A DNA stretch of 64,000 bases from a virus (taxonomy: Duplodnaviria; Caudoviricetes): IMG/VR virus record IMGVR_UViG_3300032007_000017; one strand, 5' to 3'. Numbering within the stretch: the stretch's first letter is position 1; every line of letters begins with the position of its first letter. Of this stretch, positions 24,213 to 62,854 are shown one piece after another. A program made the position numbers and the translations under genes. The notes under the pieces are model-generated. The model ran no database searches. It saw only the letters and a list, made by a program, of their open reading frames with translations, and was not told the DNA's origin.

Positions 24213-24257
24213 TCAACAAATTGATAAAGGACCGGCCAGTCCCGGTCCTTTATCTTT
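24213..24257 (+). repeat. 45-nt promoter plus hairpin element, copy 1
   Basis: 43/45 identical to 49674-49718; the two differences are paired with each other in the stem. Confidence 0.95.
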
Positions 24258-24444
24258 GACAAATAAGCATTAGGGTTATAATATCTTGACATGTTATGTC
24301 CTCCATTTATAAATATTTATATTTGAAGGACCTCCTATTCGAGTCAATAGAAGTGATAGTGGTATGACTGGCTACCACTATCACTTCTATTCATTCTTAT
24401 GGATCATATAAAAAAGAAAAACCGAGGGATTTCTCCCTCGGTTT
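24226..24444 (+). ncRNA. Candidate structured late RNA A: 5' hairpin, anti-SD region, 19-bp hairpin
   Basis: AACA-N6-TA at 24215-24226; hairpins 24223-24254 and 24346-24391 have complementary loops; 3' end uncertain. Confidence 0.5.
24419..24444 (-). terminator. Intrinsic terminator, possibly bidirectional
   Basis: 11-bp stem plus U tail. Confidence 0.8.
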
Positions 24445-30227: not shown

Positions 30228-30281
30228 GTGTTATTCATACCCTTTCATTTTATTATGATGATAATATGTAACTAAAAAAGA

Positions 30282-49673: not shown

Positions 49674-49718
49674 TCAACAAATTGATAAAGGACCAGCCAG
49701 TCCTGGTCCTTTATCTTT
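49674..49718 (+). repeat. 45-nt promoter plus hairpin element, copy 2
   Basis: 43/45 identical to 24213-24257. Confidence 0.95.
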
Positions 49719-49828
49719 ATTCATAAGCTTGTCGACTTAAGCTCATGAATGATCCGATCGTCTAAACAAACCGGGATAGCTAAACGATCAGGAAGACGGG
49801 TAGCAGAAATGCTACCCGTCGTTCTATC
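49687..49828 (+). ncRNA. Candidate structured late RNA B with four consecutive stems
   Basis: AACA-N6-TA 49676-49687; stems 49684-49715, 49719-49750, 49753-49793 and 49795-49820 (GAAA loop); no ORF; the sheath gene has its own promoter downstream. Confidence 0.55.
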
Positions 49829-49849
49829 TATGCCTCATTGCTGAAGTTT

Positions 49850-49861
49850 AACATAGCAGTA
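49850..49861 (+). promoter_or_regulatory. Late-type promoter of the sheath-tube operon
   Basis: AACATAGCAGTA. Confidence 0.8.
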
Positions 49862-58585: not shown

Positions 58586-59581
58586 ATGGAATTCTATTAT
58601 CCTTTCATAGGCACCGAGCCTACAGAAGAAATTTCTGCTAAGAAGAATGCACTCGATGGTTATACAGAATTCGATACGTCATTCTTCGAAGATGATGGTG
58701 CGAAAATCGTCCCCTCTGAACAAGAACTCGAGCTTGCAGATAAGAATAATAAAGCTAAGAAAGCCCCTGAAAGACTTACCAAAGTCTCTCAAAAGGGTGG
58801 TCCTTTCGATGTACCAGTTCCTGTAGCATCTACAGAAGCTGTTGTAGATCCTATGACTGTACCTTATGCTGATTCTTATCGTAGAACTAATTCATGGCTT
58901 GAGCAGTCTGTTCTTCAGACGGATGTACTTGCTAGTGAAGTAAAAGAAGACTTGGATAAGATCCGTGCTTCCAATACCATGAAGTCTAAGTACACCTATA
59001 TCTCTAATCTTGCTGGTGTTCAGGCTAGTTTGATTGGTACGAAGATTCAGGCTATTCGTGAAATCAATAACTCTATCAACAAGGCTCATGAACTTGAGCT
59101 TAAGAGAGCTAAGGATATCAAGGATGCTCAGAAGGATCAGCAGAATGATGATTCTCGCATGATGGATATGTACAATGCCTTTATCAATTCTCCTATGGGC
59201 ATGTACAATAATGCTTTGAATATGCCGACTGTCCCTGAAGCGATGCTTGGTACGAATGGTTTAAACCCCACTATCCAGGGTGTATCAATTGCTCCGAACG
59301 CTGGTCTGTCTTCCAATCAGTTGTCTCCCGAGCAGCTTCGCATGAGAATGGAGGGCAACCCCAATATTGAAGAGGTTGTCATGTATGAACCTTCTACAGG
59401 TAGACGTTGGTTCCAGATTTTAGATAATTCGACAGGTCAACCTGTCCCCGGTATGCCTACAAGTGACGATTTCTTACTTTCGGATGTCACTATTGATGTC
59501 CGTAGTGGGACTGCTAAGAATCGTAACATTGACCGGGTTTGGAGGCTCGTAAACACCGAAAATACAGTTTACGAATATTGA
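58586..59581 (+). CDS. Hypothetical late protein
   Basis: 331 aa, AAGGAGG SD, late-type promoter 58553-58564. Confidence 0.8.
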   Translation: MEFYYPFIGTEPTEEISAKKNALDGYTEFDTSFFEDDGAKIVPSEQELELADKNNKAKKAPERLTKVSQKGGPFDVPVPVASTEAVVDPMTVPYADSYRRTNSWLEQSVLQTDVLASEVKEDLDKIRASNTMKSKYTYISNLAGVQASLIGTKIQAIREINNSINKAHELELKRAKDIKDAQKDQQNDDSRMMDMYNAFINSPMGMYNNALNMPTVPEAMLGTNGLNPTIQGVSIAPNAGLSSNQLSPEQLRMRMEGNPNIEEVVMYEPSTGRRWFQILDNSTGQPVPGMPTSDDFLLSDVTIDVRSGTAKNRNIDRVWRLVNTENTVYEY

Positions 59582-59586
59582 TGTGA

Positions 59587-59670
59587 AAATAAAAGGGGGA
59601 GAGCCCCGATTGTGGGCTCTCCCAAGAAAGAGGAAGTTCGATGCATCTCTATCGCATGGGCGCATCGATT
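59587..59670 (-). ncRNA. Candidate sRNA-4
   Basis: AGCA-N6-TA 59681-59670; 5' stem; CAUCGAACUUCCUCUUUCUU (anti-start/anti-SD); terminator 59623-59597 with U tail on the minus strand only. Confidence 0.45.
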
Positions 59671-59703
59671 AATTATATGCTATCAACTATATAAAAAATA
59701 AAT

Positions 59704-59728
59704 ATAAGAGGACTTTTTGTCCTCTTAT
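59704..59728. terminator. Bidirectional terminator-like hairpin inside the sRNA cluster
   Basis: ATAAGAGGAC/GTCCTCTTAT flanked by A and T runs. Confidence 0.7.
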
Positions 59729-59737
59729 TTCTTTGCT

Positions 59738-59830
59738 AAAACTAATTAGACAGTCATTATGACTGTCTAATTAGTACTATGGAGGAATCAATCAATGAAA
59801 ACCAAAAAGAAATATAGAAATTGTGGCTTT
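59738..59830 (-). ncRNA. Candidate sRNA-3
   Basis: AACT-N6-TA 59841-59830; UUUUCAUUGAUUGAUUCCUCCA; 16-17-bp terminal hairpin 59775-59741 plus U tail. Confidence 0.5.
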
Positions 59831-59844
59831 ACTTAATAGTTAGA

Positions 59845-59969
59845 TAGACTATATACAAGGGACTCGAAAGTCCCTTGTATATAGTTTTGAAAGAAGAAGT
59901 CAATCTGGGAAAAGTGTGGATAACATGTTGAAAAATCATAAGTTTCATCCAAAACCAAATAATGGTTTT
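59845..59969 (-). ncRNA. Candidate sRNA-2
   Basis: AACA-N7-TA 59981-59969; 5' hairpin AAAACCA/TGGTTTT; CU-rich body; 17-bp hairpin with UUCG loop on the minus strand. Confidence 0.45.
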
Positions 59970-59989
59970 ACTTTTTTTGTTATATGCAT

Positions 59990-60105
59990 AAAAAATAATA
60001 CGAGGGTCTACCAGCCCCCCGTATTACTGTATGTAGTCATATAAGAGGCCCATCTCACAAACCTCTTACTGAGTACATACTAATGTGGACGTATTTCAGC
60101 CCACC
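59990..60105 (-). ncRNA. Candidate structured sRNA-1
   Basis: AACA-N6-TG 60116-60105; three stems, all with G-U pairs that form only on the minus strand; terminator plus U tail. Confidence 0.55.
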
Positions 60106-60115
60106 ATTAGTATGT

Positions 60116-62854
60116 TCAGTTCGCATTAAAATCCCAAATTATATTATTGGTAGATTTATCAATATCAATACCATCAGATCTAAGAAGAATGATATCAGCA
60201 TTTGATACAATCATCTCAGAAGAATGTGAGATCATAATGCACTGCTCAGTTTCCATAAGATCCATGATATTATCCATCAATAAAGCAAATGCTGCTCTAT
60301 TAGGTTCATCAAGAGGATCATCAATTTCATCTACTTTAATGACATTATACTCAGTAGAAGAAATCTTCAAAAGAGCAAATGAGATAATCATGGATATCAT
60401 AGTCAACTGAGAGGAACTCATTGAAGATATATCATCATTCAAATATCCATTACCAATGCAAGGAATTCTAAACTCATTTTCATTGATAACGAATGGTTGA
60501 AGTTGATACTGTCCTCCAAATAGATAAGACAATAACTTATTGGAGAGTTTCAGTATATTACCCATATAGAGTTCCATAAATACTAGCTGGATGCCAGTAG
60601 TAGGGGATGAATAGAACTTGACTTTTTCATACTTCTTAATCTCAGTTTGATAAGACTCAAGAGATTTTTCATAATCTGCAATCTGTCCAAGCTTGTAAAC
60701 CAAATCATCTCGTTCTCTATTTTTATGAGAAACATCATTCTCATAAACTTTCAAACGAGTAACCTCTTCTGCTCTTCTAGCTTCATGATTACGAATGAAA
60801 TCTATCTGAGATTTATACTGATCAAGCTCATTCTTTGTAGAATCATAAAGTTGCATTGTTTGCAGTATCTGATCGACCTTGGGTATCAAATAATCGTTTA
60901 TTTGATGAATTCTGTCTTCTGATACTGCTAAAGCCCTTTGAACGTGTTCTACGATCCTTTGGTTCGCCTCAGAGTGCCTAAATAAGGCGCTGAGAGAAGC
61001 TTCAAGTTGAATTTTCATGTCGTAGAACTTTTTCATGCCTTCTTTCATTCCAGCAAGAGAAGCTAGCTTAGCTTCATACTTTTGAATATTTCCTACTATG
61101 ATTTGATATTCTTCAAAGTAATTGGCTAAGTCAATATATTGATAGATTCTATCAATATATTTCAATTCATCTCCTCCAAGAAGAGTCTCAAAGAACTCTG
61201 CTTTGGATTCGAATATTCCTCCATTTGGAAGTCTTGAAAGAATGGAATGATTCTTATCAATAGAACGAATGATCGTTCTAATGGCATTTAAGCAAGCATT
61301 ATGAACTTCTGCATGTTTAACCTCAGATTCATATTGATCTATTTGTGCTTTAAAAATATCATATGAATTGGTTAAGTCAGATAGAGTTTCTGCCGGATTA
61401 GTAGCAGCGGCTTTTACAGCATCTGATATAAAGAAGCATGAATCAATCTTACAACCACTAGGACGATTCTTTAACTTTTCTGCCAGCTTACGATTAGTAT
61501 CTGCTTCAGCAATTGCTGTTAGATACTTTTCGTTATACTGGTCTTTGGTATCAAGAACCGCCTGTTGTTTCGATGTATCAATAACAGAAGGCATGCCTAT
61601 ATAATTAATGGTAGCAAACTCATTGATACATTCTTGAATTGTATGATAGTCATACATAAACTTAAAATCTTCTACTAAGCGAGTAATCTCATGCACTGTC
61701 TCCAACGCAATAATATACTCAGCTTTTGTAAAAGAATTCGGATCAATACCTGTAACAGATATTGTCTGGGCTATCTGTGCCGCATCTTGTTTAGCACTAT
61801 TCAGATAGGATTCGACCTCATTATACTCATCAGACTTTAAAGAGGATAACTGATTTTCAATATCATCAATCTGTCCTTTGATAGATTGAATTTGATTTAT
61901 CAATCCATTATTAATAGATCTAATTCTCTCTATCTCAGACTTGAAATAGGTATTAGCAGCATAGTCTTTCTGAAGTTGCTCAGCCAATGCTTTTGCTTCC
62001 ACTTCAGGAATAAACATCATCTGCATACCATCTCGATGATAACCAAAAATCATCTCTTTAAGCTCTTTATTAAGCTTTCTGAGTTCAGATTCTTTGCTCT
62101 TATATGAAGTTTGAATAGAAGCATCGGGATCAATGTTTCTGATTTCTACATCAATCTCTGTAATGGTTCTTTTAACTTCATCAATGTTTCTTTGAATTTC
62201 ATTTGTCTCTCGTTCTACAGAATCTTTTAAAGCCTCTAAACTTGCTTTATCTCCAAGAGCTCCTAATCTAGTAGTGATACTAGACATAATAGCCTTAACA
62301 GCACTTACTTTCTTAGAAACTGTCTTGTAGATATCGTTATAGACTTCAAGAGATTCGATAATAGAATTAACAAACTTCTTTCTCTCAGCAGGCTTCTTAT
62401 AACCAAGACCTCTATCATCCATGGATAGTTTAGAGAGAGCAAAGAAATTAGGATCAAGCTTAAATTCAGAATACAAAATGTCTCGATAACTCGTTACATT
62501 CCCATTCTGATTCATCTCAATCATAACTCCATTATCATTAGACTTTGAGATAAATGCTTTAGTGGTTTCTCTTGTACCATTTGGTTTCAGTTCATGAAAG
62601 AACTGAATTAGATAGTTGTGTCCTTTGTGATAGACTCCTACTATTTTACTAGCAGATCTATCAGGAATAAATGCATCAGTACTATCTGGAAATAAACTTA
62701 ATGCATTCATAATAGTGGTCTTACCAGACCCATTGGTTCCTTTAATGACTTGGACTCTATGTGTAGCAAGACTAAAATCTATCCTGATATTATAGAGACC
62801 CATTCCATTATAGATACCAACGTAGTTATTCAGTTCAAGACTTGTAAATCTCAT
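60116..62854 (-). CDS. sbcC: SbcC/Rad50 (T4 gp46-like) SMC ATPase
   Basis: Walker A GTNGSGKT, long coiled coil, central CKIDSC, signature MSSSQ, Walker B/D-loop VDEIDDPLD, ISH. Confidence 0.9.
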   Translation of the reverse strand: MRFTSLELNNYVGIYNGMGLYNIRIDFSLATHRVQVIKGTNGSGKTTIMNALSLFPDSTDAFIPDRSASKIVGVYHKGHNYLIQFFHELKPNGTRETTKAFISKSNDNGVMIEMNQNGNVTSYRDILYSEFKLDPNFFALSKLSMDDRGLGYKKPAERKKFVNSIIESLEVYNDIYKTVSKKVSAVKAIMSSITTRLGALGDKASLEALKDSVERETNEIQRNIDEVKRTITEIDVEIRNIDPDASIQTSYKSKESELRKLNKELKEMIFGYHRDGMQMMFIPEVEAKALAEQLQKDYAANTYFKSEIERIRSINNGLINQIQSIKGQIDDIENQLSSLKSDEYNEVESYLNSAKQDAAQIAQTISVTGIDPNSFTKAEYIIALETVHEITRLVEDFKFMYDYHTIQECINEFATINYIGMPSVIDTSKQQAVLDTKDQYNEKYLTAIAEADTNRKLAEKLKNRPSGCKIDSCFFISDAVKAAATNPAETLSDLTNSYDIFKAQIDQYESEVKHAEVHNACLNAIRTIIRSIDKNHSILSRLPNGGIFESKAEFFETLLGGDELKYIDRIYQYIDLANYFEEYQIIVGNIQKYEAKLASLAGMKEGMKKFYDMKIQLEASLSALFRHSEANQRIVEHVQRALAVSEDRIHQINDYLIPKVDQILQTMQLYDSTKNELDQYKSQIDFIRNHEARRAEEVTRLKVYENDVSHKNRERDDLVYKLGQIADYEKSLESYQTEIKKYEKVKFYSSPTTGIQLVFMELYMGNILKLSNKLLSYLFGGQYQLQPFVINENEFRIPCIGNGYLNDDISSMSSSQLTMISMIISFALLKISSTEYNVIKVDEIDDPLDEPNRAAFALLMDNIMDLMETEQCIMISHSSEMIVSNADIILLRSDGIDIDKSTNNIIWDFNAN

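Follow-up and report, generated by a model that had tools for sequence, protein, structure and literature searches.

The 331-aa gene (58586-59581, plus strand), which belongs to no known family, and the SbcC/Rad50-like gene (60116-62854, minus strand) converge on a gap of 534 nt (59582-60115) that contains no ORF of 60 codons or more. The question that this locus raises is what such a gap does. An earlier note on the DNA had placed candidate small RNAs on its minus strand and had proposed that they carry, just 5′ of a terminal hairpin, segments complementary to a Shine-Dalgarno (SD) sequence and a start codon, by which they would silence translation of host defence genes, competing elements or early phage genes. 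Because such anti-SD and anti-start segments are the reverse complements of plus-strand SD-spacer-ATG strings, the question becomes which of the two strands functions. To our knowledge, little is understood of how giant phages with RNA polymerases of their own regulate gene expression after transcription.

The window, by which we mean the whole 64,000-nt stretch that was analysed, comprises bases 73533-137532 of a single contig of 178,490 bp. The phage is a large myovirus with tail sheath and tail tube genes, a family-B DNA polymerase and the SbcC/Rad50-like ATPase, for which the closest isolates are the uracil-DNA giant phages AR9/PBS1 and the Staphylococcus S6-type phages, at only 24-28% identity. 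Megablast of a phage collection with the region and tblastn with the 331-aa protein returned no match, and neither did a search of viral contigs for the exact pattern of the hairpin that we call H1. Relatives were located through homologues of the 331-aa protein, which led to 12 further loci with 49-100% identity; the near-identical contigs derive from sequencing runs DRR595539 and SRR25030049. The convergent gene pair is kept in 12 of these 12 loci, and a gap of 519-948 nt is kept in all of them except the most distant (L001, 49%), where two protein cassettes (128 aa and 27 aa) lie in the gap on the minus strand. The equivalent place in AR9 is occupied by six small minus-strand genes. Outside L001, the gene callers used at the source placed at most one frame (38-39 codons) in each gap. 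Scans of the gap for tRNAs and Rfam families found none at the gathering score; what matches the units gave were far below threshold, at the level of noise. The single clue to the host is that one relative was binned in a Clostridia MAG. As a separate observation, the family-B DNA polymerase of the window is one 680-aa frame, and in two relatives the gene is in two pieces (488 and 162 aa in L012, 18-3885; 470 and 145 aa in L021, 339-2849), with a 424-aa TnpB/Cas12f-like ORF lying between the two pieces in L012.

The late promoter of phage AR9 has been defined experimentally as AACA-N6-TA/G, the last base of which is the transcription start (Lavysh et al. 2017, PMC5312081). AACA-N6-TA is concentrated between the genes of the phage studied here: 47 of 103 sites (46%) are intergenic, whereas intergenic DNA makes up 9% of the genome, and most of these intergenic sites lie 15-40 nt ahead of gene starts that have an SD and an ATG. 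Variants of the form AACT-N6-TA stand at the customary distance before approximately nine of the phage's genes. For the strand tests, counts were made over the gaps of a non-redundant set of seven relatives. Here the strict late motif occurs 16 times on the minus strand against 1.08 expected (15-fold), a number reached in none of 500 shuffles, whereas on the plus strand it occurs 0 times against 1.96 expected. We also noticed a different, AT-rich motif (TCAT, about 3 nt, then ATAATATGTAA) at 12 or more mostly intergenic places, often abutting a divergent gene start, with examples at 30261 (plus) and 36193 (minus) of the window and at 1284, 9208, 17937 and 21259 of the genome. By analogy with the long AT-rich early motif of AR9, it is probably an early promoter read by the virion RNA polymerase.

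The hairpins of the seven gaps show the same polarity as the late motif. Among 40 strong hairpins, a U-tract is found on the minus side only in 17, on the plus side only in none and on both sides in one. The minus-strand RNA version is the stabler one for 25 hairpins and the plus-strand version for 8 (sign test, p=0.0046; Wilcoxon, 0.0012). Since the minus-strand stems are the more stable, their non-Watson-Crick positions are G-U on the minus strand and C-A on the plus strand. Within the window itself this asymmetry in stability is confined to the sRNA-1 stems, as H1-H4 are perfect palindromes. Comparison of the sequences establishes the strand polarity, and the promoters, the U-tract terminators and the stems that depend on G-U pairs point to the minus strand as the organised and probably transcribed one.

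The unit next to SbcC, sRNA-1, has a late promoter of the form AACA-N6-TG (60105-60116, minus), the first A of which also ends the SbcC stop codon. Its body (59989-60105, minus) is predicted to fold into a 5′ stem, a long middle stem and the terminator H5 (59996-60026) with a U-tract. H5 and the 5′ stem depend on minus-strand G-U pairs (-17.1 vs -11.3 and -24.6 vs -21.0, respectively). The promoter and the conserved 5′ end of the RNA are found again in relatives, and the 8-nt loop of H5, CUGGUAGA, is identical in every relative that has this hairpin, while the stem covaries. sRNA-1 belongs to a conserved RNA family whose 5′ stem is conserved too (59989-60116 of the window, minus strand, and the gaps of L002, L014, L016, L019, L021 and L023), which in the relatives of 63% identity forms a separate unit about 250 nt from SbcC. 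No member of this family carries an anti-SD core.

The promoter-like site of sRNA-2 (59969-59981, minus), read from the sequence, has N7 instead of N6 spacing. The N7 class is not enriched in the intergenic DNA of this genome (8/103), and the homologous site of relatives shows the canonical N6 spacing. The sRNA-2 body (59846-59969, minus) consists of a predicted 5′ stem and the terminal hairpin H4 (59848-59885), which lacks a U-tract on its minus side. sRNA-2 and sRNA-3 have paralogous 5′ ends (repeat D1), and the 7-bp 5′ stem that the two share tolerates an A-to-G change on the minus strand only. In L011, H4 carries a compensatory change and the body between H4 and H5 has been swapped wholesale. 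Minus-strand frames of 39-41 codons at 59829-59958 were considered as genes and rejected, since no SD precedes them and L011 has other DNA in their place. In the relatives of 63% identity, the second unit contains an 11-nt single-stranded motif, CAUCUGUACAG, with an 8-nt palindrome (minus strand of L002, L016, L017, L019 and L023, and nearly so in L021), which sRNA-2 of the window does not have. It is followed by an anti-SD in L002 and L019 and not in the other relatives with the motif.

The promoter of sRNA-3 (59830-59841, minus) is of the AACT-N6-TA type found ahead of genes in this genome. The unit (59736-59830, minus) comprises a predicted 5′ stem, a single-stranded segment, the hairpin H3 (59741-59775) and UUUU. 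H3 is AT-rich with only four U residues after it, and neither H3 nor H4 qualified as an intrinsic terminator by test. The sRNA-3 transcript may, on this model, run on to H2 (59704-59728), a hairpin with T-runs on both sides that was scored as a bidirectional terminator. In L010 the outer pair of H3 turns into G-U on the minus strand, and in L012 a hairpin of other sequence occupies the position of H2.

At sRNA-4, the promoter position defined by alignment with relatives (59670-59681, minus) is degenerate, with AGCA in place of AACA/T. Of eight other loci that could be aligned here, seven show canonical AACT, paired with TG in L012 and with TA in the others, and the eighth shows AACC. Intergenic DNA of this genome has no excess of AGCA-type sites. 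Among the units of this phage's gap, canonical promoters are those of sRNA-1 and sRNA-3 only, sRNA-2 and sRNA-4 having the N7 and AGCA forms. The sRNA-4 unit (59586-59670, minus) has a predicted 5′ stem, a CU-rich single strand and the terminator H1 (59597-59623) with its U-tract (59586-59596). Relatives keep H1 through compensatory changes, and in each case the T-run lies on its minus side. The terminator scan called H1, H2 and H5 as terminators on the minus strand.

The strings on which the silencing proposal had been built are present in the sequence. In sRNA-3, the complement of a ribosome-binding site (RBS) consists of the anti-start CAU, a 9-nt spacer and CCUCC (59781-59800, minus); on the plus strand it reads GGAGG (59781-59785), the spacer, ATG (59795-59797) and AAA. 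That of sRNA-4 consists of CAU, a 7-nt spacer and CCUCUUU (59627-59643, minus), opposite AAAGAGG (59627-59633) and ATG (59641-59643). The weaker CU-rich and CAU strings ascribed to sRNA-2 are also there, as the complements of 59889-59899 and 59916-59927. So is the similar string of an RNA outside the gap, termed RNA A (CAT at 24290-24292 and CCTCC at 24300-24304). RNA A belongs to one of two places, 24215-24400 and 49676-49850 (both plus), at which late promoters of identical motif would fire into ORF-free DNA; the first hairpin is common to both, apart from a compensatory pair. The unit at 24215-24400 carries CAU-N7-CCUCC, and on the opposite strand a 32-codon frame runs through its hairpin and promoter.

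The window alone contains two plus-strand SD-ATG strings against 0.41 in dinucleotide shuffles, which is suggestive only (P=0.056). Across the seven gaps, SD-N4-10-ATG occurs 20 times on the plus strand against 4.36 in dinucleotide shuffles (4.6-fold), and none of 1000 shuffles reached 20; on the minus strand it occurs 5 times against 2.4. The plus-strand ATG offsets peak 5-8 nt past the SD core, with 18 in these four offsets versus about 1.3 per offset elsewhere, and the minus strand has no 5-8 nt ATG peak. These results clearly demonstrate that the mirror image of an RBS recurs in the relatives well above chance and that its geometry is that of an RBS. Its location also bears out the earlier note, as 12 of the 40 strong minus-strand hairpins have an anti-SD core in the 18 nt upstream of them and only one has it downstream (random rate 0.17, p=0.025). 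With no more than 12 of the 40 hairpins so preceded, the core marks a subset of the units.

The RBS-complement segments are predicted to be single-stranded, between the 5′ stem and the terminal hairpin. In the predicted folds, the mean probability of being unpaired is 0.83 for sRNA-3 and 0.71 for sRNA-4, in which the CU tract is at about 0.99 and the CAU lies inside the 5′ stem. The sRNA-3 seed block is common to a unit of L012 (75% identity), and its flanks have diverged. Conservation between the window and L012 takes in the SD and some of the spacer, then the ATG with two or three codons, and ends there; this is the footprint of a start region and not of a peptide. The sequence evidence supports minus-strand units that would run from promoter to terminator, free of ORFs and with predicted exposed RBS complements. 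A further string, CACCUCCUUUCU, of 12-13 nt, is present on the minus strand in the SbcC-proximal part of the gap in L016 and L023, where it is the mirror of a 'perfect' SD. It matches exactly the 3′ end of 16S rRNA in Firmicutes. In L017 the string is kept though the matching start codon is lost.

One alternative is that the plus strand is the functional one. Transcripts of the 331-aa gene that continue into the gap would then present the SD and ATG to ribosomes, which would translate micro-ORFs whose sequence is free to vary or, docked as 30S subunits, would stabilise the message. Stabilisers of mRNA that act by 30S docking are known in Firmicutes. The SD-ATG geometry is indeed that of real start sites, an SD follows each plus-strand hairpin, as between the genes of an operon, and H1 has no U-tract on its plus side in any relative, so plus-strand transcripts may read into the gap. 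The two micro-ORFs of the window, of 13 codons (59795-59836, plus; unit 3) and 17 codons (59641-59694, plus; unit 4), the lengths that the note had given, each have an SD and a start codon at proper spacing. SD-led micro-ORFs have a median of 17 codons versus 10 for other ATG-led frames, a weak upward trend that is not significant (p=0.068). The peptides themselves, however, argue against this alternative. Those of the relatives are 1-38 residues long and unrelated to one another, and at the sRNA-4 position the frames of relatives are 3-7 codons long, with sequences unrelated to that of micro-ORF 4. In L011, near-identical save for the exchanged body of sRNA-2, micro-ORF 3 is put out of frame after its seventh codon by an insertion of 2 nt, and in L017, one of two near-identical relatives in another clade, the ATG behind the perfect SD is ACG. 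A conserved ORF was sought in the units on both strands across the relatives and none was found; the possibility raised by the earlier note, that the micro-ORFs are conserved as peptides, is thus not borne out. The promoter and hairpin counts also oppose a functional plus strand, as the late motif is absent from it where about two were expected, no hairpin has a U-tract on the plus side alone and the stems favour the minus strand. We think that this alternative is unlikely.

If the minus-strand RNAs act on start regions in trans, targets might be found in the phage itself. As a set of start regions we used the 134 SD-led starts of the phage. The seeds pair with them at -16.2 kcal/mol, compared with -13.1±0.8 for shuffled seeds, and at -15.9, compared with -13.2±0.7 kcal/mol, and the real seeds pair better with start regions than with internal coding controls. 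As a stricter control, each real start region was converted to its antisense and scored against the remaining ones. Against this control, the best match of sRNA-3, the start of a 179-aa gene at genome position 27326 (-33.5 kcal/mol), is at the 4.5th percentile, and the best match of sRNA-4 is at the 67th. The 179-aa gene, which is thus no more than a weak lead, has no Pfam or PHROG family, and the nearest of the homologues retrieved for it comes from an unlinked sample. Seven RBS-complement segments from across the genome have a mean z near 0, and no start region of the phage genome stands out above the antisense-of-RBS controls. A crude classification by promoter assigned only one start region to the 'early' class. 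The blastn-short comparison that had been suggested, against the rest of the phage genome, returned no match longer than 14 nt. The sRNA-3 20-mer has 22 exact matches in bacterial genomes, and because they are scattered over many phyla, it is a generic RBS string that points to no host. Complementarity is thus better than in shuffled controls but not better than in antisense-of-RBS controls, which indicates that the mirror is generic; no specific phage target emerged. Of the silencing proposal, the organised minus strand, the ORF-free units and the predicted exposed RBS complements have support from comparison, and a specific target in the phage has not. It counts against silencing that the late mRNAs of the phage itself, with the same strong SDs, would be hit by a generic anti-RBS RNA as well. 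Outside the window, the genome contains four further orphan late-promoter units with CAU-N6-9-anti-SD ahead of a hairpin (genome positions 19559, 21249 and 60493 on the minus strand and 28605 on the plus strand), whose best start-region matches are likewise no better than controls.

The outcome of the target search also bears on an alternative in which the RNAs are real, but the pyrimidine tract binds a protein or is a decoy of the 16S rRNA 3′ tail, the CAU being secondary. The relatives of sRNA-4 keep a CU-rich pyrimidine tract before H1, but not the strict anti-SD or the CAU; the SbcC-proximal unit of L016 and L023 carries the string that matches the Firmicute 16S 3′ end; and a specific phage target was not found. 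On the other hand, the 5-8 nt spacing peak between ATG/CAU and the core is hard to explain without complementarity to start sites, and the block shared by sRNA-3 and L012 keeps the SD, the ATG and the first codons together. On balance, a role of the pyrimidine tract by itself seems improbable to us.

Alternatively, the gap might be a stack of terminator-promoter modules that flank swappable cassettes or insulate the convergent late genes, in which case the bodies would be empty or decayed cargo. There is precedent in the PeSL cassettes of T4-type phages (PMC2839356, PMC4122927), where, as here, a hairpin and then a promoter are repeated and flank variable, swapped cargo. In the gaps of the relatives, each next promoter begins a few nt after the preceding hairpin, and the complete exchange, in L011, of what lies between H4 and H5, the protein cassettes in the gap of L001 and the six small genes of AR9 would all fit. 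The likeness to PeSLs is architectural: the promoters here are of the late AR9 type, whereas those of PeSLs are early and sigma-70-type, and the cargo here is ORF-free with RBS complements, unlike that of PeSLs. Decay, moreover, does not predict a 4.6-fold excess, on one strand, of correctly spaced SD-ATG complements, nor conserved seed blocks, nor a gap that is kept free of genes across the loci other than L001. We therefore regard empty or decayed cargo as a quite unlikely account of the bodies. Expression of both strands as a cis-antisense pair, of the type I toxin-antitoxin kind, with the minus-strand RNA silencing the micro-ORF opposite, is very improbable, because although units combine promoters on the minus strand with overlapping start sites on the plus strand, plus-strand promoters are absent and the 13- and 17-residue peptides are short, basic or mixed in character, not membrane-like, not conserved and frameshifted in L011.

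The explanation that we tentatively prefer is that short non-coding transcription units follow one another in a tandem array along the minus strand of the gap. Each would have, or would once have had, an AR9-type late promoter read by the non-virion RNA polymerase of the phage, followed by a body of approximately 85-125 nt and a terminal hairpin. sRNA-3, sRNA-4 and units in the relatives would expose, between the 5′ stem and the terminal hairpin, a single strand that is the Watson-Crick mirror of the SD, the spacer and the AUG. Late in infection, this stretch could pair in antisense with the translation-initiation regions of target mRNAs and so keep the 30S subunit off. We infer from the sequence that such RNAs would be made, would act in trans and would repress translation. 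That the array silences defence, rival or early genes in this way seems to us possible and comes close to, without reaching, being probable. T4 shuts off translation of early mRNAs at the RBS with the proteins RegA, a repressor, and RegB, a nuclease that cuts at GGAG. The proposed outcome here is the same, a temporal silencing at the RBS, but the agent would be RNA, and the analogy is a functional one only.

One could envision several further points of comparison. The Firmicute sRNAs RsaE/RoxS (PMC6158497, PMC8216469) likewise have a 5′ stem, an exposed pyrimidine seed for the SD region, an intrinsic terminator and no ORF. The units of the window differ from them in being phage-encoded, in tandem and with promoters for a phage RNA polymerase, and their seed mirrors the SD, the spacer and the AUG, whereas that of RsaE/RoxS is a CCC motif. 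AR9 offers a closer setting. Its late start site 75478 lies on the minus strand, in the interval from g090 to g091, has AACA-N6-TA and is labelled antisense in the published list, with no function assigned; its step height of 3757 is the highest among the late start sites in the rows examined (PMC5312081). In this locus (75401-75538, minus; our L048), the site gives a short intergenic RNA with an anti-SD hexamer at its start and then a hairpin, opposite which there is an orphan SD-N10-ATG frame of about 21 codons. The AR9 unit resembles those of the window in its AACA-N6-TA grammar, in lying on the strand opposite the flanking genes and in its short body that runs into a hairpin. Unlike them, it is single and not in an array, its anti-SD is at the 5′ end and not before the terminal hairpin, and it shares no sequence similarity with them. 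AR9 itself, to judge from the same rows, makes a very abundant late intergenic RNA to which no role is assigned there. A wider reading is that AR9-like giant phages of gut Firmicutes have, throughout the family, late RNAs that mirror whole RBSs (anti-SD plus anti-AUG), are made by the phage polymerase and serve as an RNA-based counterpart of RegA/RegB that silences early phage or host messages; we consider this doubtful, although it is worth stating.

Should the units prove to be unexpressed, the locus would still be a clear case of terminator-promoter cassette architecture in the AR9-like lineage. If the units are made and silence start sites, they would account for 0.5-0.9 kb of DNA without genes that is kept at a fixed place in a phage family, would offer ready-made natural antisense designs for use in Firmicutes, and would give the phage a simple, programmable means to time translation.
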